A stretch of DNA of 64,000 bases from Vicinamibacterales bacterium (GTDB taxonomy: Bacteria > Acidobacteriota > Vicinamibacteria > Vicinamibacterales > UBA2999). Of the stretch, positions 10,901 through 59,211 are shown piece by piece (position 1 is the stretch's first letter; each line of letters starts with the position of its first letter). The position numbers and the translations under genes are program-made. The notes below the pieces were generated by a model. That model worked only from the letters and a program-made list of their open reading frames with translations. It searched no databases and was not told where the DNA came from. The DNA lies in assembly GCA_035495795.1 (NCBI GenBank), contig DATJFF010000252.1:4745-68744 (forward strand). The letters run 5' to 3'.

Positions 10901-10942
10901 GGCAGAAGGCAGAAGGCAAAAGGCAAAAGGCAAAAGCAGAAA
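10901..10942. repeat. GGCARAA heptamer tandem array (about 6 units)
   Basis: GGCAGAA GGCAGAA GGCAAAA GGCAAAA GGCAAAA GCAGAAA, between convergent genes. Ends at the stop codon at 10943. Confidence 0.9.
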
Positions 10943-12541
10943 TCAGCGGCGCAGTGTGTACAGCCGGAGGCCTGCGTCGTCGCCCACGCGCTCGAGTTCT
11001 GGCGACTGCTCGATGGCCTCGACTTGTTCCGCTGGCCAGTCCTTCGTGTGCACCATCACGTGAGTGACGCCAACCGCCCGCATCTCTTCGAGCACTGCGG
11101 CTGACGGGAATGCACGCCACCTGGCAGCGCGCTCCCTGGATGCGGCGCTCTCGAACCCGCTATAGCCGTTCACGAGCGGCCGAAAGTGGTGCGTGGCCGC
11201 GACCATGTAGCGCGCGTTTTCGCTCACCGACGGTCCGCCGTAGAGAGGTATCTCCACGAGAACGGCGACGTCCGCTCGACGCAACCCGTCGTAGATTGCG
11301 GGAGTAACCGGTACGCCCGCGAACCCCATTGGCGTCCGGAGCGCCTCAAGGGTGGGAACGGCCAGAAGGATCAGGGCCGCCGCCGGCCAGTAGGTACTGC
11401 GGTCCCATCGCCGTTGCAGCGCCGCCGTCGTGTAGCCGGCGATGATGGCAATCGCCATCAGCGGCAGCACTCCCCAGCGGGCCGCCCCGCGAAGGCCGGT
11501 GAAGAGCGGTACGTGCTCGTGGATCCAGGCATAGCCCGGCATCGCCGGTCCGAACGACAGCGCGAGCCCGATCAGACCGGCGGCTCCACTCATCCACACC
11601 CGCCGATCGCGGCGAACCTCGGGGAACGCGATCGCCGCACAGGCCAGAAGCGTTGCCGCGATCCCGGGGAACAGCGCCGTCCGCCCCTCGAACCAGCGAT
11701 GACTCCACAGCGCGTAGTGAAATCGCCCGCCGGTCGCGAGGTAGTCGGCCCAGGTGGCGGAGTAGAGCGCGACTTCATCGAGCGGCCGGTTCAGCCCCTG
11801 CTCGCGGCTGACGATGTAGTACGGCCAGAGAAAAGGGATGAGCAGGGCGATCGATACAAGGGCCGCGGCACTCAGCGCGGCAATGGTGTGCGGGCGCGGC
11901 GGCCAGAGCCACTCGCCGGCGCGGACCGCGGCGCCGGTCAGGAGCGCGACGCTCATGAACACCAGCGTGTAGTTGGAGCAGAGCGCCTGGAGGACGAACG
12001 CAGACGCCAGCAGCACAGTTGCGCGGCGCCCGCCGCTGCCTCTTATCAGCCGGTCCAGCGCCAACAGCGCCAGTGGAAAGAACTCGAGGTGCAGTGCCTG
12101 CAGGTGCACGAGCCGGGTCAGCAGGTGCGCGTTGAACGCGTACAGCATCCCCGCGATCACCCCGCCAAGCGTGCTGCCCGTCCATCCGGTCATGACCAGC
12201 GCCATCGCCCACCCCGAGAGGGCGAACCCGGCCAGCACGAGGATGTTGTAAACGGTGATCGGCGAGACTCCGGCCCACATCAACGGCGCGCCCATCATCG
12301 ACGGGACCAGCATGTGCTCCGAATAGGCCAGCGTGTGGTGCTCGGGGAAGAAGATCGGCGCTTCGAACAGCGCGAGCGGGTTCCTGGGGACGATGTGCGC
12401 GACCCACGAGATGACGAACACGTTCAACCCGCCATCATCGTTGTCGAGCCGCGAGAGGCCCGAGAGGTCGCCCGCCAACGGCCACGTGTGCAGGACGGCC
12501 AGGCCGCCGAAGAGTACGAGCAGCAGGAGGCCGCGGCGCAT
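10943..12541 (-). CDS. GT-C-fold (ArnT/PMT-like) integral membrane glycosyltransferase-like protein, paralog 1
   Basis: Multi-TM. First-loop acidic motif LDNDDG. Shares AFSE, YAFNAH, HLQ, PLVNGYSGF blocks with the two upstream paralogs. Confidence 0.65.
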   Translation of the reverse strand: MRRGLLLLVLFGGLAVLHTWPLAGDLSGLSRLDNDDGGLNVFVISWVAHIVPRNPLALFEAPIFFPEHHTLAYSEHMLVPSMMGAPLMWAGVSPITVYNILVLAGFALSGWAMALVMTGWTGSTLGGVIAGMLYAFNAHLLTRLVHLQALHLEFFPLALLALDRLIRGSGGRRATVLLASAFVLQALCSNYTLVFMSVALLTGAAVRAGEWLWPPRPHTIAALSAAALVSIALLIPFLWPYYIVSREQGLNRPLDEVALYSATWADYLATGGRFHYALWSHRWFEGRTALFPGIAATLLACAAIAFPEVRRDRRVWMSGAAGLIGLALSFGPAMPGYAWIHEHVPLFTGLRGAARWGVLPLMAIAIIAGYTTAALQRRWDRSTYWPAAALILLAVPTLEALRTPMGFAGVPVTPAIYDGLRRADVAVLVEIPLYGGPSVSENARYMVAATHHFRPLVNGYSGFESAASRERAARWRAFPSAAVLEEMRAVGVTHVMVHTKDWPAEQVEAIEQSPELERVGDDAGLRLYTLRR

Positions 12542-14142
12542 CAGCGCCCTCCAAACGTCAGGCTGTAGAGCACTTCGTCGCCTTCGTCGGAGACGAGCGC
12601 GATCTCCGGCGACTCCGCGCAGAGCTTCAGGAGCTCGGGGGCGACGCGCCGCTTGTGCAGCAGCACGTGCGAGACGCCGATGGCGCGGAGCGACCGCACG
12701 CTGTCGGGCGCGGGGAAGAGGCGCATCACCGCTTCGTGAGTCGAGTAGCTGGCCGGCGTGAACCCGCTATAGCCATTCAGCAGCGGCTTGAGGTGCCACG
12801 CCGAATAGAGCACGCTCGGCCCGTTGTCCTGGATCGATGCCCGGGGCGGAAACGGGATCTCGGCCAGCACGATATCGGGCATCGCCGCGATCCGGTCGTA
12901 GATCTTCGGTATCCCTTCATAGACCGTGAAGCCCATGGGGGCCCGGAGGGCCTCGATCGTGACCGCCGCGCTCAGTGCGGTCGCCAGGACCGCCGCTTTG
13001 CCGGGGGCGAGCCTGCTTGTCCACGCTGAAACGGTAAAACCCGCCAGGATCGGCAGCGCGAACAGCGTCAGCCAGCCGAAGCGCGAGACCGCGCGGATCC
13101 CCTGCAGCAGCGACACGTGGTCGTACAGCCAGCGATATCCAGGCAGGTTGACGCCAAAGGCGAGCGCCAGGCCAGCGACACCGATGGTGAGCGCCATCCG
13201 CGCGCGAGGATTGCGCCAGGCGATGCCTCTGACGATCGCAATCAAGGCGAGCATTGAGACGGTCACGCCGGGGAAGAGCGACGACGAGGCATCCGGTACG
13301 TAGCGGTGGCTCCACCATTCGTAGTGCAGGCGCCCGCCGGTGGAGAGCCAGTCGCGCCACGTCGCGGAGTACATCCCCACTTCGTCGAAACCGCGCACCA
13401 ACCCCTGGCGGGTGTGCACCAGCCAGTACTGATAGAGGAACGGCGCCAGCACCACTGCCGACGCCGCGGCGGCACCAAGCACGGCGAGCAGCTGACGCGC
13501 TCGCCAGGCGTCGGGACGGACCGCGACGGCAGCGATCATCGCGATGGCCGCCATCACCAGCAGGTAGTTGGATGTGAGGGCCTGGGCGGCCAGGGTGAGC
13601 GCCAGGATGCCTGCCCAACGGCGGCCTGGCGTCTCGATCGTCCGGTCCAGGGCGTAGAGTGCCAGCGGAAGGTACTGCACGTGCTGCGCCTGGAGGTGAC
13701 CGAAACGGACGAGGGTATGGGCGTTGAAGGCATAGGCGAGGCCGGCGACAATCCCGGCCGCCCGGCTCCCGGTCCACTCCGACACCACCCACGACATCGC
13801 GACGCCGCTCAACGCGAATCCGGCGAGAACCAGCAGGTTGTAGACGACGACCGGATCGATGCCGCTCCAGGTCAGCGGCGCGCCCATCAGCGCCTGCGGC
13901 AGCATGATTTCCGAGAACGCCAGGGTGCGCGGCTCGGGGAAGAAGATGTTGGCGTGAAAGAGGTTGAGCGGATCGCGGAGCGCCGTGATCCCGACCCAGG
14001 CGATGGCCCACGTATTCAGTGCGGTATCGGCGTTGTCCACCCGGGCCCACGTGCCTGGCGCCGATGCCAGCGGCCAGGTGTGCAGGACCGCGGCGGCAAC
14101 GAAGAGCGCTAATTCGGAAAGCCGACGATCTCGAACAGCCAC
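12541..14142 (-). CDS. GT-C-fold membrane glycosyltransferase-like protein, paralog 2
   Basis: C-terminal 533 codons of the 1121-aa track ORF. GTG start gives MAVRDRRLSELALFVAAAVLHTWPLA, parallel to the paralog 1 N-terminus. Motifs VDNAD and PLLNGYSGF. TGATG overlap with paralog 1. Confidence 0.6.
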   Translation of the reverse strand: MAVRDRRLSELALFVAAAVLHTWPLASAPGTWARVDNADTALNTWAIAWVGITALRDPLNLFHANIFFPEPRTLAFSEIMLPQALMGAPLTWSGIDPVVVYNLLVLAGFALSGVAMSWVVSEWTGSRAAGIVAGLAYAFNAHTLVRFGHLQAQHVQYLPLALYALDRTIETPGRRWAGILALTLAAQALTSNYLLVMAAIAMIAAVAVRPDAWRARQLLAVLGAAAASAVVLAPFLYQYWLVHTRQGLVRGFDEVGMYSATWRDWLSTGGRLHYEWWSHRYVPDASSSLFPGVTVSMLALIAIVRGIAWRNPRARMALTIGVAGLALAFGVNLPGYRWLYDHVSLLQGIRAVSRFGWLTLFALPILAGFTVSAWTSRLAPGKAAVLATALSAAVTIEALRAPMGFTVYEGIPKIYDRIAAMPDIVLAEIPFPPRASIQDNGPSVLYSAWHLKPLLNGYSGFTPASYSTHEAVMRLFPAPDSVRSLRAIGVSHVLLHKRRVAPELLKLCAESPEIALVSDEGDEVLYSLTFGGR

Positions 14143-15743
14143 ACGTCGCCTTCCTGGACGAGCGGACGAAGATACGCGCGATAGGTGTCGAGACGCTCGA
14201 TGAGCCGCTGTCGCGAGCGCGAGTCGTAGAGGTTCAGGTGGAACATCACGTAGCGCGCGCCGACCTTGCCGAGAATCTGGAACGACTCGCGGGTCGGAAA
14301 CGAGCTGAGCGGGCGGACCTGGTCGCGGAACTCCTGCGGGATGTGGTCGCTGTAGCCGTTGACGAGCGGCATCCAGTGCGTCGCCGAGTTGAGCATGTAG
14401 TAGGCGTGTCGCGGAAAGTCGCTGCGCAGGTAGAAATACGGAAACTCCGCGACCGCCCCGGGCGGCTGCACCGCCAGCGTGCGATATGCATCGGCGAACG
14501 GCTCGACCGGCCGGAACGCGGTGAGCGGCGCCTGGAGCAGCTCCGCCGCCGCCAGGAGCGCGATCGCGGCCGTCCACGCGGCGCGGTTCCTGCGGCCCGC
14601 GAGCCAGCCTTTCAGCGCGACCGCCGCAAACACCGCGAGGCAGAGGACCACGACAATGCCGATGCGTCCTGGGGCGCGGAGAAAGGTGAATATCGGGATG
14701 GTGCGATAGAACAGCGTATACAGGCCGGCGTCGGGCCCGAATGAGAGCCACACCGACAACAGCGCTGTGAGTCCGTAGATGAGTGCCAGCTCGCGGGAGG
14801 CGGCCTGCCGCCATGCCAGCGCAAGGCCGGCGATCCCCAGGCCGAGCGCGACGACACCGGGAAACAGCACTTCGTTGAAGGGCTCGATCCATGGCAGCCA
14901 CCAGCGATGCGCCCAGGCCGCCGAAGCCAGCCAGGCACCGACATCCGCCGAATACATCCGCGCGTCGTCGAGCGTCCGCGCGAATCCGGCGTCCTTCTGG
15001 ACACTCAGATACGGCAGGAAGAACGGCACCGTCAGCGCGATGGAGACGAACGCGGCGAGCGCGATTCCGATCCAGTAATCGCGATCGCGCCAGCGGTGGC
15101 GCGTGGCGGCAACCACCAGCGTCGCCAGGCCGACCATCAAGCCGGCGAAGATGCCGTAGTAGGCGCACGCGAGCGCCTGCAGCCAGAGCGCGACACCGAG
15201 GGTGAGCGCACGCGATGCGGTCGGCCGATCCGCCAGGCGATGGAACGCGAGGAGGCAAAACGGAAGGCCGCCGGTGTAGAGCAGCTGGATGTGCGCGGTC
15301 CGCGCGAAGGTGAACGGGCTGAAGGCGTAGAGGATGGCGGCGACGATTGCGGCGCCGCGGCTGCCGGTGAGATACCGGGCGAGGTAGTACGCACCGACGA
15401 AGGCGATCACAAACGAGACGAACGCCGCGAAGTTGTGCGTCGCGTAGGGGTTCTTCGTCGCGGCCCAGACCGGCGCCGCAATCGCGCCTTCGACGAGATT
15501 GGCTTCTGAGAAGGCGAGCGCGTTGCGCTGCGGATAGAAGATGTTGGCCTGGTAGACGCCGGCAGGGTCGGTGGTCAACGCGTGGGCGACCCACGACACC
15601 ACCCAGATGCTCCACCGGCCGTCGTCGGTGTTGACTCGTCCGATGCGATCGAACTGGAACGCCAGGGGATAGGTGAGGACGGCGGTGAGGGCCACGGCGC
15701 CGAGCACGACTGCCGTGCCCTCGGCGAGTCCCCGAGAGCGCAT
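14109..15743 (-). CDS. GT-C-fold membrane glycosyltransferase-like protein, paralog 3
   Basis: Multi-TM. Motifs VNTDDG and PLVNGYSDH. Same block order as paralogs 1 and 2. Confidence 0.65.
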   Translation of the reverse strand: MRSRGLAEGTAVVLGAVALTAVLTYPLAFQFDRIGRVNTDDGRWSIWVVSWVAHALTTDPAGVYQANIFYPQRNALAFSEANLVEGAIAAPVWAATKNPYATHNFAAFVSFVIAFVGAYYLARYLTGSRGAAIVAAILYAFSPFTFARTAHIQLLYTGGLPFCLLAFHRLADRPTASRALTLGVALWLQALACAYYGIFAGLMVGLATLVVAATRHRWRDRDYWIGIALAAFVSIALTVPFFLPYLSVQKDAGFARTLDDARMYSADVGAWLASAAWAHRWWLPWIEPFNEVLFPGVVALGLGIAGLALAWRQAASRELALIYGLTALLSVWLSFGPDAGLYTLFYRTIPIFTFLRAPGRIGIVVVLCLAVFAAVALKGWLAGRRNRAAWTAAIALLAAAELLQAPLTAFRPVEPFADAYRTLAVQPPGAVAEFPYFYLRSDFPRHAYYMLNSATHWMPLVNGYSDHIPQEFRDQVRPLSSFPTRESFQILGKVGARYVMFHLNLYDSRSRQRLIERLDTYRAYLRPLVQEGDVWLFEIVGFPN

Positions 15744-15760
15744 GTCCGCCGTATGGTAGC

Positions 15761-16531
15761 ATGCTCGGTCGGCCTGCCTGCCGCATGGATCGCCTGCTCG
15801 AACTCACCGCGCTCGCGGAGCGCTCCCACTTCTGGTTTCGAGGGTTTCGCTGGTTCCTCCGTCCCGTGCTGGCCCGCGCCGTCGCCGGCCAGGCTCGGGC
15901 GCGCATCCTCGATTGCGGATGCGGTACTGGATCGAACCTCGCGATGCTCGATCCGTTCGGCGAGACCTACGGGTTCGACCTCACGTGGCGCGGGCTGCTC
16001 TTCGCTCACGAGCACGGCCGCCGCCGGATCGCGCAGGGCAGTATCGATGCGATCCCATTCAAGAGCGGCAGCTTCGATCTGGTGACATCGTTCGACGTGT
16101 TCCAGACGCTGCCCGACGCCATCGAACGATCGGCAATCGCGGAGATGGCGCGGGTGGTGAAGCCGGGCGGCGCCGCCGTCTTCAATTTCGCGGCGCTCGA
16201 ACTGCTTCGAGGCGGGCACTCCGTTCTGGCGGAAGAAGTGAGACGCTACACGCCTTCGCAGGTCCGCGGGCTGATGTCCGCGGCCGGACTGCGCGTCGAG
16301 TTCCTGACCTTCGCCTTTGCCAGCCTGTTTCCGTTGATGCTGGCCGCTCGGGTCGGGCACCGGCTTCGCCGGGGCGGCGAAGCGACAGTCGGCGAGTGGG
16401 AGATCGAAGTACCCGCCGCGCCTGTCAACGCGCTGCTGACCGGCGCGGTATGGGCCGAGGCGCAGGCAATGCGCGCGCTCCGGATGCCGATTGGTTCGTC
16501 GATAATTTGCCTCGCGCGGAAGCCGCAGTAG
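15761..16531 (+). CDS. class I SAM-dependent methyltransferase
   Basis: Motif I ILDCGCGTGSNL. Acidic motif II/post-I pattern, VKPGGAAVF. Confidence 0.8.
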   Translation: MLGRPACRMDRLLELTALAERSHFWFRGFRWFLRPVLARAVAGQARARILDCGCGTGSNLAMLDPFGETYGFDLTWRGLLFAHEHGRRRIAQGSIDAIPFKSGSFDLVTSFDVFQTLPDAIERSAIAEMARVVKPGGAAVFNFAALELLRGGHSVLAEEVRRYTPSQVRGLMSAAGLRVEFLTFAFASLFPLMLAARVGHRLRRGGEATVGEWEIEVPAAPVNALLTGAVWAEAQAMRALRMPIGSSIICLARKPQ

Positions 16532-19187: not shown

Positions 19188-19191
19188 CCGA

Positions 19192-19232
19192 GGCAAGGCA
19201 AAAGGCAAAAGGCAGAAGGCAGATCTTCTGCC
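19192..19232 (+). repeat. GGCARAA heptamer array ending in a hairpin (GGCAGAAG-GCAGAT-CTTCTGCC)
   Basis: GGCAA GGCAAAA GGCAAAA GGCAGAA GGCAGA TC TTCTGCC, starting 4 nt after the stop at 19185-19187. Confidence 0.85.
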
Positions 19233-20105: not shown

Positions 20106-20243
20106 GCGCGATTCACCAAGCCCCGGAAACTGTTACCGATCAACCGAGCCGCCGTCAGGCGGCACCGTACCCGGCTCGAAGGGGGTTAGCCGGGCGCGTC
20201 CGAGTGGGCGTCGGACGTACAGAGGATAGCAGAGTCGGCGTCC

Positions 20244-20500
20244 ATTGACGATTGGCGATTGGGGATTGAGGATTTATTGGTGATTGGGAATTGCGGGATT
20301 GCGCCATTCGATTGGCGATTGGGGCATTGGTGATTGAACGATCCGGAGGAATGACGATTGACGGTTGGCGATGGCGATTGGGGTGGGTGACGCACGCCGA
20401 AAATTCGCCAATCGTGATTCCCTCAATCAGTCAATGCCTCAATCCTGCAATCGGCAATTGAATCGCGCAATTCCCCGATCCCCGGATCATGAATGAATCG
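20244..20500. repeat. ~250-nt element built of GATTGGN heptamers with an inverted (CCAATC-type) right half
   Basis: Left half GATTGGC GATTGGG GATTGAG ... (20244-20389). The right half is its complement style: CGCCAATC, CCTCAATC, GCCTCAATC, CTGCAATC ... (20405-20500). Confidence 0.85.
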
Positions 20501-24617: not shown

Positions 24618-24704
24618 GAAGTTAGAAGCGAGAGGTGAGAGGTGAGAGGCTAAGCTTTGAAGCTTTGGCTTACTTCTCACTTCTCACCTCTCACTTCTAA
24701 CTTC
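24618..24704. repeat. inverted-arm hairpin element built of GAGAGGT-type heptamers (32-nt arms, 22-nt loop)
   Basis: Left arm GAAGTTAGAAGCGAGAGGTGAGAGGTGAGAGG. The right arm is its near-perfect reverse complement. The loop contains AAGCTTTG twice. The right arm abuts the stop codon at 24705. Confidence 0.9.
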
Positions 24705-28222: not shown

Positions 28223-28329
28223 GAGGCTCTGGGCTCTAGGCTTTAGGAAGAAACTCCTGTCACGCGAATCGCTCGATCTTGTGAGACAAGCGCTCTTCCT
28301 AGAGCCTAAAGCCTGAAGCCCAGAGCCTC
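28223..28329. repeat. inverted-arm hairpin element built of GGCTCTR heptamers (copy A)
   Basis: Left arm GAGGCTCTGGGCTCTAGGCTTTAGGAAGA. Right arm TCTTCCTAGAGCCTAAAGCCTGAAGCCCAGAGCCTC. Core AAACTCCTGTCACGC. The right arm abuts the rplT stop at 28330. Confidence 0.9.
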
Positions 28330-28692: not shown

Positions 28693-28820
28693 GGTGACTC
28701 CTCTTCGCGTTCCATGGGGGCCCGCTTCTCGCGAGACTTGCGGCCGGCGACGCCATGTCGCGACCTCGAGACGCTCCGCAGCCGAAAAAGCCCCATGACG
28801 CAGGGCCGCGGAGAAGAACA

Positions 28821-28928
28821 GGCTCTAGGCTTCAGGCTCTGGGCTCTAGGAAAAACTCGTGTCACGCTGTGACCGCGTGAACACTGAGCTTTCTCTAGAG
28901 CCTAAAGCAAAGCCTAGAGCCTAGAGCC
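28821..28928. repeat. inverted-arm hairpin element built of GGCTCTR heptamers (copy B)
   Basis: GGCTCTA GGCTTCA GGCTCTG GGCTCTA ... core AAACTCGTGTCACGC ... CTCTAGAGCCTAAAGCAAAGCCTAGAGCCTAGAGCC. The right arm abuts the rpmI stop at 28930. Confidence 0.9.
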
Positions 28929-28929
28929 T

Positions 28930-29124
28930 TCACTTATACGGAAGCATCCGGTGCAGCTTGGGCGCGTCGGCCTCCGAGACCACCGCGGTGCCGCGCATGT
29001 GGCGCTTGCTTTTGGTGGTCTTGCCGGTCAGGATGTGGCGCTTGAATGCCGAGGCGCGGACGATCTTGCCGCTGCCGGTCTTCTTGAACCGCTTCGCGGC
29101 TCCGCGATGTGTCTTCAGCTTCAT
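28930..29124 (-). CDS. rpmI: 50S ribosomal protein L35
   Basis: [23 protein letters not shown].... Confidence 0.95.
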
Positions 29125-39843: not shown

Positions 39844-41382
39844 TCAGGAATCGGTGACACGCGCGCGGATCTCGCCGCGCTCCAGTGTGACGCGAATGGG
39901 ATCGCCGGGAGCCACGCTCTCAGCATCGCGGACGATGCGGGTGCGCTCGCCGTCCCAGCAGACAGCGTAGCCGCGGCCCAGCACGGCGAGTGGGCTGAGA
40001 CCATCGAGATGCGCCGCGAGTTCGCGGAACCGGCCCTGGACCCGATGGAGCCGCCGCGTCGCGGCGCCGCGGAGCCGCACGTCCTGGCCGACCAGCGTGG
40101 CCCGAACGCGGGCCAGCCGGTGGCGCGGATCGAACTGATCGAGGGTCCGGCGTGCCGTTTCCAGACGCCGGCGGCGCGCTGCAATCGCCCCCCGGGCGGC
40201 GTGTTTCAGGTCGGAGGTCAACTCGCCGACGTGCCGGGACCGCCACGCCATTCGGCCGGGGTAACCGGCGAACCCGGGCCGGGCCTGCAGCGCGTGCAGC
40301 CGCGAGTCGAAGCGGCGAACCCGGTTGAGCATGGCCGCGCGCAGCTGCTGCACCAGCCGCCGGATGTGAGCGGTGAACTCGTCCTTCTGCCGCACCACCA
40401 TTTCCGCGGCGGCCGACGGCGTCGGCGCCCGCAAGTCGGCGGCGAAGTCCGCAATCGTGACGTCGGTTTCGTGGCCGACGGCGGAGATCACGGGAATGGG
40501 ACAAGCGGCGATGGCGCGAGCGACGATTTCCTCGTTGAATGCCCAGAGGTCTTCGAGCGACCCGCCGCCCCGGCCGACGATGACGACGTCCACGTGATCG
40601 ATCCGGGCGACGAGACGCAGGGCGCGCGCGATTTCTCCAGACGCCCCTTCACCTTGAACGCGAGTGGGTGAGATCACCAGGTGCGCGTTTGGATAGCGCC
40701 TGCGCAAGACGCGCACGATGTCACGCAGCGCCGCGCCGTCGATCGAGGTCACGATACCAATGCGGCGGGGCAGCGCCGGCAGCGGCCTCTTGCGCGTCTC
40801 GGCGAACAACCCCTCGGCGGCGAGCTTCTTCTTCAACTGCTCGAAGGCGAGCTGCAGCTCCCCGAGCCCCTGCGGCTCGAGGTGTTCGCAGACCAGCTGG
40901 TACTCACCCTTCGGCTCGTAAACGCTGATCCGTCCGCGCACGGTGACGCACAGGCCGTCGGTCGGCTTGAACTTGAGCAGGCGCAGTGTCGAGCGGAACA
41001 CCACGCCCTTGATCTGCGCGTTGGCGTCCTTGAGCGTGAAGTAGAAGTGGCCGGAGTTCCAGGTCCGGCCGCCGGAGATCTCACCCTGGACCCAGATCTC
41101 GTCGAACGTCTCCTCGACGACGTTGCGCAGCCGCGCGGAAAGCTGAGAGACGGTCAGAGGTAGACGCCTCACGGCGGGTGCGGCGGGTGCGACCGGTGCG
41201 GCTGGTGCGAGGGGTGCGCGTGCGACAGGTGCGGAAGGTGCGACTGGTGCGGCCGGCTCGCTCGGTTTGCGGTGCGCCGGATCCTCGTCATCCATCGGAG
41301 CGGGTCTGGCGGGCTGGCCGCGCCGAAGCTTCTCGTCCTCCGGGGGAGAAGAAACAGGATCGTCGAAGGGGAGCATGCTCAT
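39844..41382 (-). CDS. xseA: exodeoxyribonuclease VII large subunit with Ala/Pro-rich N-terminal extension
   Basis: OB fold + catalytic domain (IWVQGEISG..., GIVTS..GAALRDI, GRGGGSLEDLWAFN). ATGA overlap with ymdB supports the long form. GTG at 41172 is an alternative start. Confidence 0.85.
   Translation of the reverse strand: MSMLPFDDPVSSPPEDEKLRRGQPARPAPMDDEDPAHRKPSEPAAPVAPSAPVARAPLAPAAPVAPAAPAVRRLPLTVSQLSARLRNVVEETFDEIWVQGEISGGRTWNSGHFYFTLKDANAQIKGVVFRSTLRLLKFKPTDGLCVTVRGRISVYEPKGEYQLVCEHLEPQGLGELQLAFEQLKKKLAAEGLFAETRKRPLPALPRRIGIVTSIDGAALRDIVRVLRRRYPNAHLVISPTRVQGEGASGEIARALRLVARIDHVDVVIVGRGGGSLEDLWAFNEEIVARAIAACPIPVISAVGHETDVTIADFAADLRAPTPSAAAEMVVRQKDEFTAHIRRLVQQLRAAMLNRVRRFDSRLHALQARPGFAGYPGRMAWRSRHVGELTSDLKHAARGAIAARRRRLETARRTLDQFDPRHRLARVRATLVGQDVRLRGAATRRLHRVQGRFRELAAHLDGLSPLAVLGRGYAVCWDGERTRIVRDAESVAPGDPIRVTLERGEIRARVTDS
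41173..41254. repeat. in-frame 9-bp tandem repeat (NNNGGTGCG on + strand, about 9 units) inside the xseA 5' region
   Basis: GGTGCG recurs at 41177, 41186, 41195, 41204, 41213, (41220), 41228, 41237 and 41246. Encodes APV/APA/APS-type triplets. Confidence 0.85.
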
Positions 41383-45249: not shown

Positions 45250-45303
45250 GCGGCAAGGGGAAGGCGAAGGCACAAGGCAGAAGGCACAAGGCCCAAGGCA
45301 GAA
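45250..45303 (+). repeat. GGCNNAA heptamer array (about 8 units)
   Basis: GCGGCAA GGGGAA GGCGAA GGCACAA GGCAGAA GGCACAA GGCCCAA GGCAGAA, starting directly after the stop at 45247-45249. Confidence 0.85.
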
Positions 45304-45342
45304 GAACGCCCCTGCGGAAGCATGAATTTCGCAGGGGCGTTC
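45304..45342. terminator. 13-bp perfect stem hairpin between convergent genes
   Basis: GAACGCCCCTGCG - 13 nt loop - CGCAGGGGCGTTC. Confidence 0.6.
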
Positions 45343-45355
45343 GTGTCTTAACCGA

Positions 45356-46956: not shown

Positions 46957-46959
46957 AAA

Positions 46960-46973
46960 GGCTCCAGGCTCTA
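46960..46973. repeat. two-unit GGCTCYA mini-array
   Basis: GGCTCCA GGCTCTA, between the convergent stops at 46954-46956 and 46978-46980. Confidence 0.6.
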
Positions 46974-46977
46974 GTCG

Positions 46978-48719: not shown

Positions 48720-48754
48720 GAAGTGAGAGGCGAGAAATGAGAGGTGAGAGGTAC
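48720..48754. repeat. GAGAGGT-type heptamer array (single arm, 5 units)
   Basis: GAAGTGA GAGGCGA GAAATGA GAGGTGA GAGGTAC, 18 nt upstream of the gatC start. Confidence 0.85.
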
Positions 48755-48776
48755 CCCCCTCCGGGAGGGTCAACGC

Positions 48777-49658
48777 TTACTGGTCACGTCTCACTTCGCC
48801 CTCGTCGTCTGTCAAGGGCCAGAAATGCCCGTCGTCGAGGAGCCACGCGCGCCCGTTGAAGCCGCTCTCTGCAGCCTGCGCGCGCAGCGTGCGAAGGGCC
48901 GCGCCGCGTTCGTATCGGATCGAGAGATGGTGCAGGACAAGCGCGCGCACGCCGGCCTCCCTCGCGACGGTCAGGGCCTCGAGCGTGCTCGCGTGAATCG
49001 GCTCGCGGCGGTCGGCCGCGTCGAGGAACGTGGCATCGTGCACCAGCAGCTCCGCATGGCGGACGAGATCGACAGGGATCGGCATGGCATCCCCGCTGTG
49101 GGCGAACAGCACGTGCGGTACGGCCTCGGTCATCGCCTCGCGATCGCCGGCCCGTGCCCGTCGCTCGATCTCGGCAGCCGGGAGCGATGCGAACTCGGGC
49201 CGCAGGCGGCGCCGCTGCTCGATCACGCGGTAGCCGAGCGCCGGCTCTCCGCCGGTGTGGTCCACCGCAAACGCGTCGAGGTGCCGGCCTTTGCCCAGCG
49301 GCACGCTCGCACCCGGGCCGACCCCGACCCAGGTGACCGGGAACGAGACGCCGGCATAGCTCGTATCGAGGAGTGCGCGCGCCCCGCGGATCCCTCGCGA
49401 TCCCTCCGGATAGGCGATGGTGAGCGGCTTGTCCTGGGCGCCCTTGCCGAACCGCCGCGCCGCGACCAGGCCTGGCAACCCCAGCACGTGATCGGAGTGC
49501 CCGTGGGTGATGGCGAGGACGTCAGGAGCGTAGACGGAGGTGCCAAGGGCAAGCTGCAGACCTTCGCCGGCATCGATCAGGAGATGCAGCGGCCGATGCC
49601 AGAGCCAGTTGCTGTACATCCCTCGCGAGAAGCCAACCAGGTCTGGCCGGCTGCTCAT
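48777..49658 (-). CDS. MBL-fold metallo-hydrolase (RNase Z/ElaC-like)
   Basis: LLIDAGEG, ITHGHSDHVLGLPG. ATGA overlap with the TetR gene. Confidence 0.75.
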   Translation of the reverse strand: MSSRPDLVGFSRGMYSNWLWHRPLHLLIDAGEGLQLALGTSVYAPDVLAITHGHSDHVLGLPGLVAARRFGKGAQDKPLTIAYPEGSRGIRGARALLDTSYAGVSFPVTWVGVGPGASVPLGKGRHLDAFAVDHTGGEPALGYRVIEQRRRLRPEFASLPAAEIERRARAGDREAMTEAVPHVLFAHSGDAMPIPVDLVRHAELLVHDATFLDAADRREPIHASTLEALTVAREAGVRALVLHHLSIRYERGAALRTLRAQAAESGFNGRAWLLDDGHFWPLTDDEGEVRRDQ

Positions 49659-51588: not shown

Positions 51589-54500
51589 ATGTTCGCAGAC
51601 GTCTTCATCAAGCGGCCGGTCCTCTCGACGGTCTGCTCGCTGCTCATCATCCTCGCCGGCGCGATCTCGATCCCGATTCTGCCGATCGCGCGCTACCCGG
51701 AACTGGCGCCGCCGGCGGTATCGGTGACGGCGTTCTACACCGGCGCCAACGCCCAGACGGTCGAGAGCGCGGTGACCACGCCGCTCGAGCAGGTGATCAA
51801 CGGCGTCGAGGGCATGACCTACATGACCTCCTCGTCGACGAACTCCGGCATCTCGACGATCACGGTCACCTTCGACATTTCGCGAAACCAGGACCTGGCT
51901 GCCGTCGACGTCCAGAACCGCGTCAACTCGGCGCTCGGGCGAATGCCGGCCGATGTCCGCACCAACGGCATCACCGTCACCAAGGTGACCGCCGGGTTCA
52001 TGGGCGGTATCGGCTTCTTCAGCAAAGACAACCGCTACAGCAACCTCTACATCAGCAACTACCTCGATCTCTACGTCCGCGACGCGATCAAGCGCGTTCC
52101 GGGGGTCGGCGACGTCATCATCTTCGGCGAGCGCCGCTACGCGATGCGCCTGTGGCTCGATCCGAGCCGGCTGGCCGCAAGGCGGCTCACCGCGAGCGAC
52201 GTACTCAACGCCCTGCGCGAGCAGAACGTGCAGGTCGCGGCCGGAGCGCTCGGCGATCAGCCGGCCGAAGAAGGGCAGATGTTCACGATGAGCGTCCGCG
52301 CAGTCGGACGTCTCACCGAAGTCCAGGAGTTCGAGAACGTCGTCGTCCAGACCGGCGCCGACGGGGCCATGGTCCGCGTCAAGGACATCGGCAGGGTCGA
52401 GCTCGGCGCCGAGCAGTACGCCGCGAACTTGCGCTTCCTCGAGCTCGAGGCCTCCGGCATGGGCATCACGCTGCTGCCGACCGCCAACGCGCTCGACGTC
52501 TATCGGGGCGTGATGGAGACGATGGCCCGCCTCGAGCCGAGCTTCCCGCCCGGGCTCGAGTGGCGGCTCGCCTTCGACAACGTCAGCGTGGTCCGCGAGT
52601 CGATCGTCGAGGTGCTGAAGACCCTCGGCGAGGCGATTGTCCTGGTCATCATCGTGATGTTCCTGTTCCTCCAGAACTGGCGCAGCACGATCATCCCGGC
52701 GGTCACGATTCCGGTATCACTGGTCGGCACCTTCGCATTCATCAAGCTGTTCGGCTTCTCGATCAACACCCTGACGCTCTTCGGCATCGTCCTCGCCACC
52801 GGCATCGTGGTGGACGATGCGATCGTGGTGATCGAAAACATCGAGCGCCACATGGCCGAGTTCCACAAGTCGGCCAGACGGGCGGCGATCGATGCGATGC
52901 GCGAGGTGTTCGGCGCGGTCGTGGTCATCGGCATCGTGCTGGTGTCGGTGTTCGTGCCTGTTGCGTTCTTCCCCGGTGTGACGGGACGGCTCTATCAGCA
53001 GTTCTCGCTCACCATCGCGTTTGCTGTGGTCCTGTCGGTCTTCAACGCGGTGACGCTGACGCCGGCCCTTTCGGCGCTGCTGCTCGACAAGGAGCACCAC
53101 GCGCACGGCCGGATCTTCGGCGGCATCAACTGGGTCATCGACGGAGGCACTCATCTCTACGTCAGGCTGGTCCGCGGCGCGCTGCGGCTGCGCTACGCGA
53201 TGCTCATCCTGTTCGCCGGCGGGCTGTGGGCCACCTACACCCTGCTGCAGGTCGTGCCAACGGCGTTCGTCCCAGAGGAGGACGAGGGATTCCTGATCTG
53301 TATCGTGCAGGCCCCGGCTGGCGCGTCGCTCGAATACACGACCGAGATCGCGAAAAAGGCGGAGAAGATCCTTTACGCTGACCCGGACATCGCCGCGGCG
53401 TTCTCGGTGATGGGCTTCAGCTTCTCAGGGGCGGCGCCGAACAACGGGCTGATCTTCACCCGCCTCAAGGAGTACAAGGAGCGGCCGGGGGCCGAGCACT
53501 CGCTGCGCGCCGTGCTGAATCGGATCAGCGGTCCGCTGTTCATGATTCCGGGCGCGATCGTCGTGGCCTTCCCGCCGCCCGCGATCCAGGGACTGTCCAC
53601 GTTCGGCGGCTTCCAGTTCGAGGTGCTGGACCAGACCAACAACCCCGACATCAATGGCCTTGCCCAGGCGACGTTCGGGATGATCGGCGCCGGCAACCAG
53701 AGCGGCCAGGTGCAGGGACTGTTCAGCGGGTTCCGCGCCGACGATCCGCAGCTGATCGTCGAGATCGACCGCGACCGCGCGCGCAGCCTCGGGCTGCCGC
53801 TGCGCGAAGTGACCGACGCGATGCAGGTATTCCTCGGGTCGTCGTACGTCAACGACTTCGATTTCAACAATCGCGCCTACCGCGTCTACGCCCAGGCCGA
53901 TCAACGGTTCCGCGCGCACCCCGAGGACCTGCGACAGATCTACGCGCGGGCTTCCGACGGCCAGATGGTCCCGCTCGACACGGTGGTCCGGCTCCGCGAG
54001 ACGACCGCGCCCCAGGTGATCAGCCACTTCAACCTGTTCCGCTCGGCGGAAATCACCGGCAACCCTGCTCGCGGCCAGAGCTCGGGTCAGGCGCTTCAGG
54101 CAATGGAGCGGTTGGCCGGGCAGACGCTGCCGCCGGGGTTCACGTTCGCGTGGGCCGGGCAGTCGCTCGAAGAAATCAAGGCCGGCTCGCAGGCCGGTGC
54201 AATCTTCGGCCTGTCGGTGATCATCGTTTACCTCGTGCTGGCGGCACAGTACGAGAGCTGGGTGCTGCCGTTCATCATTCTGCTCGGCGTGCCGCTCGCG
54301 ATTCTGGGAGCGCTGTCGGCGCAGCTGCTTCGCGGGCTGGCCAATGACGTGTTCTGTCAGGTCGGCCTCGTGCTGCTGATCGGTCTGGCGGCCAAGAACT
54401 CGATCCTGATCGTCGAGTTCGCGGAGCAGATGCGCGAGCGCGGCATGTCGATCATCGACGCCGCCGTGGAGGCCTCGCGGATCCGCCTGCGGCCAATCCT

Positions 54501-56046
54501 GATGACCTCGTTCGCGTTCATCCTCGGCGTTTTGCCGTTGGCGCTGGCCACCGGAGCAGGCGCGGCGGCCAGGAATTCCGTCGGCACGACGGTGGCGGGT
54601 GGGATGGTCGCGTCCACGTTCCTGTCGATCGTCTTCATCCCCGTGCTCTACGTCATCATCCGCACGCTCGTGCCCGGCAAGGCGCGCGGCGCCGAGGAAC
54701 CGGAAGACGAACCGTCGGGGCCGGGGCCGGCGGCAACCGCGGCCATCGTGGTGCTGCTCGCGGTCGGACTCTCCGGGAACGCGCTGGCCCAGGTTCCCGC
54801 TCCAGGCCAGCCATCGACACCGGTGGGCATGCAGCCAGCCACCGCGACCATGCCGCCGGCGGTGACCTTCGACGAGGCCGTGGCGAAGGCCGTGGACCAG
54901 AATCTCACGGTGCAAATCACCGCGACGAACATCCTGCGGGCCGAGGCGCTGCTGCAGCAGATCCGCGCGGCGACGATGCCGTTTGTCAATGCCACGGTCA
55001 TCAACTCGACACTCGATGCGGCCCGCGGCTTCTCGGGAAACATCGTCCAGCCGCAAAACCAGTGGACGCTGACGGCGTCGGCCGGCATGCCGGTGCTGGC
55101 CGCGGCGCGGTGGGCGGCGCGCGCGCAGCAGGCCGATCGCATCGAGATCGAACGCCTGAATACGACCGACGTTCGACGGCAGATCGCGGTGTCGGCGGCG
55201 ACCGCGTATCTCGCGGTCATCAATCAGAAGCGTCTCGTGGAGGTCCAGTTGCGATCGCTCGAAACCGCGAGGGCGCAGCTGGACTACAACCAGAAGCGGC
55301 TGGAAGGCGGGATCGGCAGCCGGCTCAATCAACTGCGTGCAGCGCAGATCGCCTCGACCGAGGAAGGTCTCGTCGAGGTGTTTCAACTGAACGTCGAACG
55401 GGCACGCGAGGCGCTCGGCGTGTTGATCAACGCGGACGGTCCGCGTGACGCCGCCGGCGAGCCCGCATTCGAAGTGCCGATCATCGGCGCTCCCGAAGAG
55501 TGGCTGCCGGCCCGCACCGACTATCGGCTCTTCACCGCCGAGCGGGCCCTGTCCGAGCGCATCCTCCGCGACAGCTCGAAAGACTGGTGGCCGACAGCAA
55601 CAGTGTCGTTCGATCCGGCCTACGTAACGCCGGCCGGCCTGTTTCAGCCGTCCGGCACGTGGCGGATCACTGTGAACGTCTCCCAGCCGGTCTACGACGG
55701 CGGTTTGCGGTCCGGTTTGAAGGCCGAGCGCGCGGCTAATCTGCGCAGCAGCGAGCTCTCGCTCGATCTGCTCGAGCTCCAGGCGCGTGCCGAGGTGCGG
55801 ACCGCCCGCGCGGCGGTGGAGTATCAGGAGCGGGCGCTCGCCAGCGCCCGTGCTGCCGCCGACGCGGCGAACGAGGTCCTGAAGATCACGATCATCGCGT
55901 TCGACGCCGGCGCGTCGACGAACATCGAAGTCATCGACGCGCAGCGCTCGGCGCGCGATCTCGAAACAGCGGTCGCCCAGGCCGAAGATCGGGTCCGCCA
56001 GGCGCGGCTCGATCTACTCGTCGCCCTCGGGCGCTTCCCTCAATAA
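51589..56046 (+). CDS. RND (AcrB/HAE1-like) permease fused in frame to a TolC/OprM-like outer membrane factor
   Basis: aa 1-~1030 RND with a 12-TM layout. aa ~1047-1066 hydrophobic AATAAIVVLLAVGLSGNALA with ALA|Q. aa ~1067-1485 OMF repeats. No stop codon in the track. Confidence 0.75.
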   Translation: MFADVFIKRPVLSTVCSLLIILAGAISIPILPIARYPELAPPAVSVTAFYTGANAQTVESAVTTPLEQVINGVEGMTYMTSSSTNSGISTITVTFDISRNQDLAAVDVQNRVNSALGRMPADVRTNGITVTKVTAGFMGGIGFFSKDNRYSNLYISNYLDLYVRDAIKRVPGVGDVIIFGERRYAMRLWLDPSRLAARRLTASDVLNALREQNVQVAAGALGDQPAEEGQMFTMSVRAVGRLTEVQEFENVVVQTGADGAMVRVKDIGRVELGAEQYAANLRFLELEASGMGITLLPTANALDVYRGVMETMARLEPSFPPGLEWRLAFDNVSVVRESIVEVLKTLGEAIVLVIIVMFLFLQNWRSTIIPAVTIPVSLVGTFAFIKLFGFSINTLTLFGIVLATGIVVDDAIVVIENIERHMAEFHKSARRAAIDAMREVFGAVVVIGIVLVSVFVPVAFFPGVTGRLYQQFSLTIAFAVVLSVFNAVTLTPALSALLLDKEHHAHGRIFGGINWVIDGGTHLYVRLVRGALRLRYAMLILFAGGLWATYTLLQVVPTAFVPEEDEGFLICIVQAPAGASLEYTTEIAKKAEKILYADPDIAAAFSVMGFSFSGAAPNNGLIFTRLKEYKERPGAEHSLRAVLNRISGPLFMIPGAIVVAFPPPAIQGLSTFGGFQFEVLDQTNNPDINGLAQATFGMIGAGNQSGQVQGLFSGFRADDPQLIVEIDRDRARSLGLPLREVTDAMQVFLGSSYVNDFDFNNRAYRVYAQADQRFRAHPEDLRQIYARASDGQMVPLDTVVRLRETTAPQVISHFNLFRSAEITGNPARGQSSGQALQAMERLAGQTLPPGFTFAWAGQSLEEIKAGSQAGAIFGLSVIIVYLVLAAQYESWVLPFIILLGVPLAILGALSAQLLRGLANDVFCQVGLVLLIGLAAKNSILIVEFAEQMRERGMSIIDAAVEASRIRLRPILMTSFAFILGVLPLALATGAGAAARNSVGTTVAGGMVASTFLSIVFIPVLYVIIRTLVPGKARGAEEPEDEPSGPGPAATAAIVVLLAVGLSGNALAQVPAPGQPSTPVGMQPATATMPPAVTFDEAVAKAVDQNLTVQITATNILRAEALLQQIRAATMPFVNATVINSTLDAARGFSGNIVQPQNQWTLTASAGMPVLAAARWAARAQQADRIEIERLNTTDVRRQIAVSAATAYLAVINQKRLVEVQLRSLETARAQLDYNQKRLEGGIGSRLNQLRAAQIASTEEGLVEVFQLNVERAREALGVLINADGPRDAAGEPAFEVPIIGAPEEWLPARTDYRLFTAERALSERILRDSSKDWWPTATVSFDPAYVTPAGLFQPSGTWRITVNVSQPVYDGGLRSGLKAERAANLRSSELSLDLLELQARAEVRTARAAVEYQERALASARAAADAANEVLKITIIAFDAGASTNIEVIDAQRSARDLETAVAQAEDRVRQARLDLLVALGRFPQ

Positions 56047-56143
56047 GGCATAAGGCAAAAGGCAGAAGGCAAAGGCAAAAGGCAAAAGGCAAAAGGCAAA
56101 AGGCAAGAGTCCGAAGGCAGAAGGCCGAGGGCACAGGCAGAAA
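56047..56143 (+). repeat. GGCARAA heptamer array (about 14 units, largest copy)
   Basis: GGCATAA GGCAAAA GGCAGAA GGCAAA (GGCAAAA)x4 GGCAAGA GTCCGAA GGCAGAA GGCCGAG GGCACAG GCAGAAA. Starts directly after the stop at 56044-56046. Confidence 0.9.
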
Positions 56144-57885: not shown

Positions 57886-57956
57886 GCGGGAAGGATCGAT
57901 GAGTCGTCGGCGGGTCGGAGGTGGTCGTCATCACCCGGCGTCGCCCGAAGTGACCG

Positions 57957-59012: not shown

Positions 59013-59142
59013 CGATACGCCGTCCGGGGCGCGGCGGTTCGCCCGGATTGACGGATGAGCCGGTCGACACGGTCAAGGCCTTCGCCCTTCACGTTTTCGC
59101 ACGCCCGCGGCCGCTGTGAGAGGCGAAAGGGAGACATTGGGC

Positions 59143-59211
59143 TTCTGCATTGTGCCTTGTGCCTTGTGCCTTGTGCCTTTTGCCTTGTGCCTTTTGCCTT
59201 CTGCCTGGGCC
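59143..59211 (-). repeat. GGCAMAA heptamer array in reverse orientation (about 10 units)
   Basis: + strand: TTCTGCA (TTGTGCC)x4 TTTTGCC TTGTGCC TTTTGCC TTCTGCC TGGGCC. Abuts the stop codon at 59213-59215 of the minus-strand gene, so it reads GGCA.AA in that mRNA sense. Confidence 0.9.

Follow-up and report, generated by a model that had tools for sequence, protein, structure and literature searches.

Tandem arrays in the window

The 64,000-nt stretch of Acidobacteriota DNA analysed here (the window) carries tandem arrays of short G-rich units. They are listed below by position and strand, with the extent called by Tandem Repeats Finder (TRF).

10899..10941, plus strand: AAGGCAR array of about 6 units between convergent genes (TRF)
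19188..19232, plus strand: AAGGCAR array (19192-19221; TRF 19195-19221) with a short inverted copy
20236..20500, no strand: long palindromic GATTGNN element (TRF 20244-20381)
24618..24704, no strand: GAGAGGT hairpin with arms of about 32 nt (TRF 24630-24705)
28223..28329, no strand: GGCTCTR hairpin copy A with 31-nt arms (TRF 28224-28328)
28819..28929, no strand: GGCTCTR hairpin copy B (TRF 28819-28929)
41172..41253, plus strand: 9-nt array of GGTGCGNNN (TRF), the unit that forms the arms of PF05635 gene C299:36205-36504
45250..45304, plus strand: AAGGCAR array beginning one base past the TAA at 45249 (TRF 45260-45304)
46958..46977, plus strand: solo GGCTCYA remnant of about 2.5 units (read directly from the sequence)
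48720..48800, no strand: degenerate GAGAGGT array (48720-48752; TRF) with a partial complement (about 48781-48797)
56045..56139, plus strand: AAGGCAR array of about 12-13 units, the longest, abutting the TAA at 56046 (TRF)
59142..59212, minus strand: AAGGCAY array (TRF 59142-59206)

Period-7 repetition was found at every coordinate named in the original prediction, by TRF or, for 46958-46977, by direct reading. All window arrays lie outside our gene calls, in agreement with the claim that none sits in a credible coding sequence; the GGTGCGNNN array at 41172..41253 either is intergenic or belongs to ORF 39844-41382 on the minus strand, as an N-terminal extension. The seven stop-codon abutments claimed for the window were also correct. 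The array at 10899..10941 ends 1-2 nt short of position 10943, where a minus-strand gene has its stop, the array at 19192-19221 begins 4 nt past the TAG at 19187, the GAGAGGT hairpin at 24618..24704 occupies the gap as far as the stop codon at 24705, and the array at 59142..59212 directly adjoins the stop codon (59213-59215) of gene 59213-60706 on the minus strand. GGCTCTR copy A, with an inner CTGTCACGC motif, lies immediately downstream of rplT (stop at 28330); copy B is flanked by a 64-aa ORF (28930-29124) and rplT, and the remnant at 46958..46977 occupies the 21-nt gap separating two convergent stop codons.

As had been described, the copies include both single arrays and inverted arms with stems of roughly 30 bp. 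The GATTGNN element has a left arm of about 20 degenerate units (20244-20381) and a CAATC-type complement at about 20395-20480. Array length, which the prediction had proposed to compare, differs by one unit between strains: a transcript-derived (metatranscriptome) contig reaching into the left arm of copy B has exactly one 7-nt unit fewer.

The last unit of the array at 19192-19221 pairs with the short inverted copy to give a hairpin (19211-19232) which, on the minus strand, is followed by the T-rich array strand, hence its terminator-like look. Terminator-like sites overlap this array only, and the heptamer hairpins lack T-tracts; intrinsic terminators, one of the functions first guessed, were thus rejected. 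A separate GC-rich hairpin (45306-45345) follows the AAGGCAR array at 45250..45304. An Rfam search matched no family to any array and, in the window, gave only tmRNA, 6S RNA and a tRNA. CRISPR was rejected, as predicted, the units being contiguous with no spacers.

That the arrays are artefacts of assembling low-complexity reads deserves almost no credence. The summed contig depth does rise about 100-fold over the array at 45250-45304 and many short contigs end there; therefore, the arrays do break short-read assemblies. However, a soil-metagenome contig, possibly from the window's own source sample, spans 45250-45304 with unique flanks and no gaps, the same families are present in near-complete relatives assembled into 7-20 contigs, and the arrays are placed in an ordered way relative to genes. 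Of further practical importance, the arrays create spurious ORF extensions and can pass for CRISPR arrays.

Genome-wide number and placement

The genome-wide scan called for in the original prediction identified approximately 674 period-7 arrays in the 6.29-Mb Acidobacteriota genome, with both an intergenic and a stop-codon bias. At a score of at least 50, period 7 was the top class (420 arrays versus 139 of period 9), and (AAGGCAR)3 gave 555 real matches versus 0 for the reversed control pattern. The intergenic family of many sequence flavours was borne out, but the strict 7-nt period proved too narrow: period 7 leads genome-wide, and the system also includes units of 8, 9 and about 17 nt. 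Arm length is fixed at 30-33 nt in several families, AAGGCAR array lengths are broadly distributed, and each genome is dominated by only a few unit families.

Most of the arrays (604 out of 674, about 90%) were intergenic, though the genome is about 91% coding by the gene calls of a crude codon-bias caller written for this analysis. Under a null model of uniform placement inside the same spacer, 78 array edges lay 0-2 nt from a stop versus 57 expected, an excess that is real but modest, and start-facing edges were depleted (13 versus 33 expected). The median distance was 14 nt to a facing stop versus 47 nt to a facing start, the start distances being less reliable than the stop distances because the gene caller is crude. 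The idea that arrays supply the stop codon was rejected, since stop usage is only mildly shifted (TAA makes up 18-29% of stops at arrays versus 13% genome-wide).

Among 330 co-directional cases, 213 had the G-rich strand as the sense strand, as did 137 of 199 nearest-gene convergent ones. On contigs with genes in both directions, used to tell a bias linked to transcription from one linked to replication, gene strand explained 69 of 120 orientations, with a fitted per-contig upper bound of 84 of 120. The preference for the sense strand would suit host-beneficial RNA cis elements, that is, 3′-UTR hairpins that stabilize mRNA or uncouple cistrons, RNase III sites, terminators, or platforms for RNA-binding proteins. 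Such elements would also fit the hairpins in the rplT operon region, the dnaK-dnaJ hairpins that recur in several Acidobacteriota, each time with another unit, the transcript-derived contig that covers an arm, and the terminator-like tail of one array. Nevertheless, orthologous sites are mostly without an array, close relatives have no arrays at all, canonical terminator features are missing in all cases but one, no Rfam family matches, and the hairpins show no strand asymmetry in stability or G-U pairs. We consider this explanation unlikely, and the functional guesses of the original prediction found no support here.

A G-U asymmetry in the dnaK-dnaJ hairpin of one relative had suggested selection at the RNA level. 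One-strand RNA-level selection found no support here for the hairpins, which fold equally well on either strand (sense versus antisense stability, 15 versus 15; G-U pairs, 120 versus 117).

Two-tetrad G-quadruplexes of (GGN5)n, another of the early guesses, appear very improbable. Each unit has one GG, the G-rich strand tends to be sense, and G3-type heptamers form quadruplexes in vitro (PMC4692102). However, the units here have only GG and lack the G3 tracts for which quadruplexes have been demonstrated in Xanthomonas and Nostoc, the perfect complement present in many families would favour duplex hairpins, and the same system includes 8-, 9- and 17-nt families and GC-rich units.

Arrays enclose PF05635 and GxxExxY genes

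PF05635 is the "23S rRNA intervening-sequence protein" family (S23p), whose fold is a four-helix bundle similar to Avd, an accessory protein of retroelements; structures have been solved, but to our knowledge no function has been assigned. Each of the 11 PF05635 genes in the genome is enclosed by a pair of inverted tandem arrays with a unit of its own. The PF05635 genes lie outside the window, as do the GxxExxY genes, and the link had been missed by the original prediction. An automated flank screen flagged 9 of the 11, the other two being clear by eye, versus 42 of 5186 other genes (Fisher p = 4e-23, counting all 11). Both genes for GxxExxY (PF13366) PD-(D/E)XK nucleases are flanked likewise and were recovered independently by the same screen.

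The units around these genes (AAGGCAR, GAGAAGT, GGCTCTA, GATTGNC, GAGTGCG and GGTGCGACN) are those of the dispersed families. Conversely, the window families AAGGCAR, GAGARGT, GGCTCTR and GATTGNN and the 9-mer all recur as gene-flanking units; the family of the GATTGNN element at 20236..20500 also forms the arms of the PF05635 gene C278:6684-6980, and that of the GAGAGGT hairpin at 24618..24704 is common to the PF05635 gene C219:2666-2899. In the GGCTCTA family, the gene-less hairpins retain the inner CTGTCACGCTG motif found in the copy with a gene. Homology between two copies within this genome ends at the arrays. Set beside MITEs, the elements show inverted arms and sub-terminal motifs that gene-less copies have in common with a gene-bearing one, no recognized transposase in the parent copy and, at the one filled/empty comparison, no target-site duplication.

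A pair of PF05635 paralogues, 90% identical, has one common unit, closer paralogues have closer units, and orthologues in relatives retain the unit. The closest solved structure is that of Xanthomonas S23p XCC0516, a protein whose gene start is abutted by a GGGAATC repeat (supplement of Rehm et al., 2015, PMC4692102).

Two other origins were rejected. The genome has no match to the Y1 transposase (PF01797), so the arrays are not REP/RAYT elements, as originally stated, and neither this genome nor most of the array-rich relatives has a PF00078 match, which contradicts an origin from a diversity-generating retroelement (DGR) or reverse transcriptase.

Presence and absence across genomes

Array density follows PF05635 across genomes. 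Relatives without PF05635 (n = 6, three of the same genus) had 0-1.0 period-7 arrays per 100 kb and genomes with PF05635 (n = 7) had 5.5-14.2 (Mann-Whitney p = 0.003, Spearman 0.86, kinship and genome size ignored). In the dnaK neighbourhood of 50 diverse genomes, arrays were present in 13 of 23 PF05635-positive versus 1 of 27 PF05635-negative genomes (p = 5.5e-5, again ignoring kinship and genome size). (AAGGCAR)3 was abundant only in genomes G000, G008, G009, G011 and G012. Of these, G000, G008 and G012 yielded the cognate AAGGCAR orthologue, and none turned up in the 8 genomes where such arrays are scarce or missing.

Gene-plus-arm units occupy non-syntenic sites in congeners, and dispersed arrays have been gained and lost between congeneric species. 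The site of the 56047 array is an example: 7 of 8 congeners lack the array or differ there, and the other one (G006) carries a 3-unit version at the same place.

According to Mrazek's proposal, the arrays would be ordinary microsatellites, generated by slippage of the host DNA polymerase, preferentially on 7-nt units, and building up neutrally in non-essential 3′ spacers, with no dedicated factor. The whole-unit shifts in copy number, the fast turnover between congeners, the filling of short spacers with avoidance of starts and the broad distribution of AAGGCAR array lengths all fit this proposal. We nevertheless judge it improbable: genomes of the same genus, presumably with near-identical replication machinery, have none or hundreds of arrays, tracking PF05635, every PF05635 and GxxExxY gene lies inside matched inverted arrays, several families have a fixed arm length of 30-33 nt, and few unit families dominate per genome.

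Alternatively, the PF05635 and GxxExxY genes may be passengers, that is, small mobile cassettes homing into pre-existing repeat hairpins that arise independently. The gene-array association and the co-occurrence across genomes are symmetric and fit this equally well, and two unrelated gene families do occupy the same kind of loop. However, the 6 + 27 sampled genomes lacking PF05635 all have next to no arrays, similar proteins go with similar units, and gene orthologues retain the same unit at non-syntenic sites, indicating that gene and arms travel together. A passenger role is therefore not likely.

A model for array origin

We lean towards the view that the arrays are the repeat arms of multi-family palindromic cassettes of the intervening-sequence (IVS) type, comprising gene-less hairpins, solo arms and slippage-expanded runs. 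In the full copies, a small gene is enclosed by a G-rich tandem array and an inverted array of the same unit. The gene encodes a GxxExxY PD-(D/E)XK nuclease or a four-helix-bundle protein of the PF05635 family (S23p, Avd-like), and each gene lineage has a unit of its own (7, 8, 9 or about 17 nt). Gene-less copies are dispersed over intergenic DNA and would survive mainly at the least harmful places: right past stops, between convergent genes, and at a distance from promoters and ribosome-binding sites. Their length changes by whole units, and congeneric species have gained and lost them.

A pentameric PF05635 protein may recognize its cognate unit and be needed to generate, spread or maintain the arrays. 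The relation between PF05635 and the arrays might then resemble that of RAYT to REPIN, without a known transposase, and transcribed hairpins might be cut by RNase III, as in 23S rRNA intervening sequences carrying PF05635. More tentatively, PF05635 pentamers could be putative sequence-specific binders of tandem repeats, with about one subunit per unit, that together with GxxExxY nucleases generate, spread or maintain their cognate arrays.

Several observations count against the cassette model. One shallow PF05635 clade has differing units with only a CGG core in common, and several dispersed families, CAGTTNC and AGATAGG among them, have no partner gene in the assembly. G009 and G011 are array-rich with no detectable cognate AAGGCAR gene in assemblies that are 62% and 75% complete. 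No target-site duplication was visible at the one filled/empty comparison, the 56047 site, and the four-helix bundle is, as far as we know, not a known recombinase.

Comparison with known repeat systems

Bacterial heptamer repeats (STRR) have reportedly been described since 1990, and their over-representation in many genomes is said to have been shown in 2007; we know of no accepted cause or function. The kind of repeat is thus already described, and its embedding of PF05635 and GxxExxY genes is the added observation here. Two puzzles, the PF05635 family and the heptamer repeats, meet in this association, which gives a testable lead on array origin.

The original prediction knew of no published description, which proved wrong. 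Repeats placed in the same way, termed heptameric long simple repeats, have been reported in Xanthomonas, (GGGAATC)n, and Nostoc, (GGGGAYT)n; they are intergenic, lie 0-50 nt from a stop, have the G-rich strand on the coding strand and form convergent inverted pairs (Rehm et al., 2015, PMC4692102). That paper credits Mrazek et al. (2007) with first noting the genome-wide heptamer excess and refers to literature on cyanobacterial STRR heptamers. The arrays described here likewise have head-to-tail 7-nt units, a period-7 and intergenic excess, near-stop placement, the G-rich strand coding, convergent inverted pairs and length variation. They differ in occurring in Acidobacteriota, in having many unit families per genome rather than one, in carrying GG instead of G3-4 (the three-tetrad quadruplex trait is absent), and in that 8-, 9- and 17-nt units behave alike. 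Moreover, all PF05635 and GxxExxY genes here lie within matched arrays, an embedding that the heptamer papers do not report.

In Geobacter metallireducens, 3-5 tandem units of 7-9 nt occur in dozens of copies (Aklujkar et al., 2009, PMC2700814), mostly, as here, in opposite-strand pairs at variable distance; unlike here, those sites were read as binding sites of a global regulator, and no partner gene was reported. TAACTGA direct repeats of Beggiatoaceae, cyanobacteria and Bacteroidetes (MacGregor, 2015, PMC4679880) are also intergenic heptamers in distant phyla, and our CAGTTNC family has a related core; however, they lie mostly upstream of starts and have stops in all frames, whereas the arrays here are 3′-biased.

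REP/BIME and REPIN-RAYT systems share with these elements abundant intergenic palindromes with a 3′ bias, a family tied to a cognate repeat-flanked gene, and gene-less copies that far outnumber gene-bearing ones. They differ from them in that no Y1/RAYT is present here, the arms consist of tandem arrays and not of single imperfect palindromes, and the predicted partners are a four-helix bundle and a PD-(D/E)XK nuclease.

The 23S IVS of Coxiella burnetii holds an S23p ORF in a 28-bp stem that has variable-number tandem heptamers and is cut by RNase III, and ORF-bearing 23S IVSs have been proposed to be selfish or formerly mobile elements (Warrier et al., 2016, PMC4990558). Like the IVSs of C. 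burnetii and Leptospira, the elements here have a PF05635 ORF in the loop of a heptamer stem of about 28-30 bp and exist in gene-less versions; unlike them, the elements run to hundreds of copies, those examined being located between protein-coding genes and not inside rRNA helices. If the more tentative reading of PF05635 pentamers as repeat binders is correct, these elements would represent a transposase-less, protein-dependent class of selfish repeat, and one account would cover the heptamers of cyanobacteria, Xanthomonas, Geobacter and Acidobacteriota together with the ORF-bearing 23S rRNA intervening sequences.

Heptamer arrays in the window and its genome

Every array coordinate named in the original prediction proved to be a period-7 array in Tandem Repeats Finder, and the units were verified by direct reading. 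The window also holds a 9-mer array.

Arrays of the window
10899: AAGGCAR array
19192: AAGGCAR array
45250: AAGGCAR array
56045: AAGGCAR array
59142, minus strand: AAGGCAR array
28223-28329: GGCTCTR hairpin
28819-28929: GGCTCTR hairpin
46958: short GGCTCTR remnant
24618-24704: GAGAGGT hairpin
48720: degenerate GAGAGGT copy
20236-20500: GATTGNN palindrome of about 260 nt
41172-41253: 9-mer array, of a family common to the window and the arms of a PF05635 gene

The window (C252:4745-68744) lies in a genome of 6.29 Mb (346 contigs, 67% G+C) whose DnaK is about 70% identical to that of Acidobacteriota MAGs. Period 7 is the top class genome-wide, with 420 arrays at a score of at least 50 versus 139 of period 9 and 9 of period 6, and the approximately 674 non-overlapping arrays belong to few unit families. 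In inverted pairs of all families, the G-rich arm comes first on either strand. Arm length is fixed at 30-33 nt in 72-83% of GGCTCTA/GGCTTCA arms and in about half of those of GATTGNC and GAGTGCG, and is broad in AAGGCAR and CAGTTNC (medians 48-60 nt). Some GGCTCTA hairpins (C127:3020-3165, C51:7262-7501) have runs of the 8-mer CACGAAGG in their loops; as this is the unit around a GxxExxY (PD-(D/E)XK nuclease) gene on contig C177, one repeat family is nested within another.

Over the AAGGCAR array at window 45260-45307, summed contig depth in soil and rhizosphere metagenomes (runs X1, X2, X3 and X5) was 200-1100 versus about 5 in the flanks, and many short metagenome contigs terminate in the array, indicating that soil communities contain this unit in great abundance and that it breaks up short-read assemblies. 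The reading that the arrays are assembly artefacts has little support.

Genes were called with a codon-bias caller written for this analysis (5194 genes, approximately 91% coding). Against this background, 604 of 674 arrays were mostly intergenic, bearing out the predicted intergenic bias. Convergent spacers held 199 arrays and divergent spacers 64, despite the larger amount of DNA in the latter, and array edges lay a median of 14 nt from a facing stop but 47 nt from a facing start. The predicted bias towards stop codons is real but modest: under uniform placement within the same spacer, 57 edges were expected 0-2 nt from a stop and 78 were observed, while start-adjacent edges were rarer than expected (13 versus 33). 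The preference for 3′ ends and the scarcity near starts are both consistent with purifying selection acting on insertions. Where the flanking genes are co-directional, their sense strand is the G-rich one in 213 of 330 cases (p = 1e-7); among the 199 convergent cases, the G-rich strand is sense relative to the nearest gene in 137. The C-rich orientation inside transcription units would create rut-like sites for Rho, a possible account of this sense-strand G-richness.

Other features of the window are as follows.

6971-7326, minus: tmRNA (Rfam)
23994-24180, minus: 6S RNA (Rfam), adjoining the gene cluster that contains the GAGAGGT hairpin
31764-31837, minus: tRNA (Rfam)
51589-56046, plus: single 1485-aa ORF with AcrB/RND transporter (PF00873, residues 3-1025) and C-terminal outer-membrane efflux protein domain (PF02321, residues ~1318-1481)
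63700-63810: GGGAGGGACTG direct repeat and GC-rich inverted motif of ~19-nt period (GAGGCGAAGCCCTCCCG), in the spacer before a gene at 63808

The 1485-aa ORF would join inner-membrane with outer-membrane components, an unusual fusion, unless a frameshift or stop was missed in it. The sequence at 63700-63810 falls outside the heptamer families; it is possibly a REP-like element of its own. The large ORFs 12541-15906 (minus, 1121 aa), 16545-19187 (plus, 880 aa) and 10943-12541 (minus, 532 aa) had no Pfam match at E <= 0.001; the gene caller split the first into two frames, which could reflect a frameshift or overlapping genes.

PF05635 and GxxExxY genes lie inside inverted arrays

A profile search identified 11 PF05635 genes in the genome (23S_rRNA_IVP family, four-helix bundle, TIGR02436). 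All 11 have a G-rich tandem array on one side and the inverted complement of that array on the other, each gene with its own unit, and these units are the families dispersed across the genome and the window.

Array units around the PF05635 genes, by contig
C54 (gene at 12758-13126): AAGGCAR
C219: GAGAAGT
C127 (gene at 342-707): GGCTCTA
C278: GATTGNC
C218: GAGTGCG
C200: GGTCTTGA(G)
C299: GGTGCGACN
C120: 8-mer, GATCTGAT-like
C263 and C212: ~17-mer
C99: longer GC-rich unit

An automated screen for matched inverted arrays flagged nine of the 11, the remaining two being clear by eye, and 42 of 5186 other genes (Fisher p = 4e-23 counting all 11). The screen, which used no annotation, also caught both PF13366/GxxExxY genes of the genome (units CACGAAGG and GCAGATARC). 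The PF05635 paralogues are 30-52% identical, except the C263/C212 pair (90%, one common unit), and closer pairs have closer units. Gene-less GGCTCTA hairpins retain an inner CTGTCACGCTG motif, present on each side in 18 of 29, versus 0.5% background. The gene-bearing copy has almost the same sequence in sub-terminal position, which would be expected if these hairpins were internal-deletion derivatives.

Arrays and genes in related genomes

Matched inverted arrays were found at approximately 26 of 30 PF05635 loci from 20 relatives. The PF05635 tree contains clades with common units (GGCTCTA/GGCTTCA, GGTCTTG, GC-rich long and GGGATCA) and one shallow clade whose units are alike only in a CGG core. 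Orthologous gene-plus-arm units were non-syntenic between congeners in four of five comparisons. Homology between the C263 and C212 copies is confined to the arms plus the gene, so gene and arms relocate as one unit.

Array density was determined in 70-200 kb sampled from each of 12 relatives. Six PF05635-free relatives, three of the same genus and three from other families of the order, had 0-1.0 period-7 arrays per 100 kb (three in 990 kb in total), and the seven PF05635-bearing genomes, window genome included, had 5.5-14.2 (Mann-Whitney p = 0.003, Spearman 0.86, kinship ignored). Samples of the dnaK locus from 50 diverse genomes gave arrays in 13 of 23 PF05635-positive and one of 27 PF05635-negative genomes (p = 5.5e-5, kinship ignored). 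PF05635-free genomes tend to be smaller; yet G013 (4.7 Mb) and G014 (4.3 Mb) are array-free, and arrays are present in G017 (3.8 Mb) and G018 (3.7 Mb) despite their small size.

The same co-occurrence is seen for a single family. (AAGGCAR)3 has 555 matches in the window genome, 101-169 in G008, G009, G011 and G012, and 0-9 in the other eight congeners. In G008 and G012, the AAGGCAR-linked protein has an orthologue (70-74% identity) that is itself surrounded by AAGGCAR arrays. None was found in the array-poor genomes, nor in G009 and G011, for which assembly completeness is 62% and 75%.

These data bear on two alternatives. Pure polymerase slippage leaves unaccounted for congeners with either none or hundreds of arrays. 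If the PF05635 and GxxExxY genes were passengers in arrays, their association with arrays would be explained, but two observations fit this poorly: genomes without the genes are also without arrays, and orthologues retain their unit at new sites. The evidence that arrays and both gene families form one system is unusually clean in this genome (11/11 and 2/2 genes), and the 13 related genomes sampled separate perfectly.

A hairpin fills the dnaK-dnaJ gap in four further MAGs, three of Acidobacteriota and one labelled Planctomycetia. Its arms consist of about 4.4 copies of a heptamer that differs per genome (GAGCGGT, AGTGAGC, GGTAAAT, AGACCAT).

dnaK-dnaJ hairpins
L007:6527-6640
L019:11903-12010
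L076:11930-12010
L018:11950-12010

Turnover and length change

At sites orthologous to the array at 56047, one congener carries three AAGGCAG units immediately after the stop, the other seven have short or unrelated spacers, and no target duplication is visible. The 45250 array is spanned unchanged by a soil-metagenome contig from a run that may be the source sample of the window. A metatranscriptome contig over 28631-28860 differs by two substitutions and is shorter by exactly one 7-nt unit, which shows unit-wise length change; it also suggests transcription, with DNA carry-over as the alternative.

Individual copies may be RNA elements that benefit the host, for example the terminator-like site at 19211-19232 and the dnaK-dnaJ hairpins, which recur with a different unit in each species; as a general cause, this is opposed by poor conservation at orthologous sites, symmetric folding and the lack of terminator features. 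As an interpretation, the original prediction was right in part. The G-quadruplex reading has little support.

Relation to known systems

The closest solved structure to the PF05635 proteins is 2GSC (E = 1e-14, five chains), that of XCC0516 of Xanthomonas campestris, a homopentameric toroid of four-helix bundles (Warrier et al., 2016, PMC4990558). In the Coxiella 23S intervening sequence (IVS), an S23p ORF lies within a 28-bp stem containing tandem GACAGAT heptamers, strain-variable in number, with RNase III cleavage at the first of these repeats (PMC4990558). A GGGAATC repeat (#15) overlaps the annotated XCC0516 start (supplement of Rehm et al., PMC4692102), and the PF05635 family is related to Avd of diversity-generating retroelements (PMC10053308; NCBIfam). 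Neither a reverse transcriptase nor a RAYT (the Y1 transposase of REP/REPIN systems) was found in the window genome. Taking these points together, we read the arrays as probable arms of IVS-type cassettes residing in intergenic DNA; each protein would recognise its own unit, and array propagation would depend on the protein.

The original prediction knew of no published description, but heptamer repeats have been described (PMC4692102, PMC4679880, PMC2700814). Rehm et al. (2015, PMC4692102) reported intergenic repeats, Xanthomonas (GGGAATC)n and Nostoc (GGGGAYT)n, which lie mostly on the coding strand at 0-50 nt from a stop, with 70-75 convergent inverted pairs per genome, variable length and a function not known. 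As cited there, Mrazek (2007) found over-representation of long simple repeats to be greatest for heptamers, and Calothrix has STRR heptamers. TAACTGA repeats were described by MacGregor (2015, PMC4679880), and paired sites of 3-5 tandem units of 7-9 nt in the Geobacter metallireducens genome paper (PMC2700814). We found no link in print between such arrays and PF05635 plus GxxExxY genes. The arrays described here add a new lineage and a new variant to this already known repeat class.
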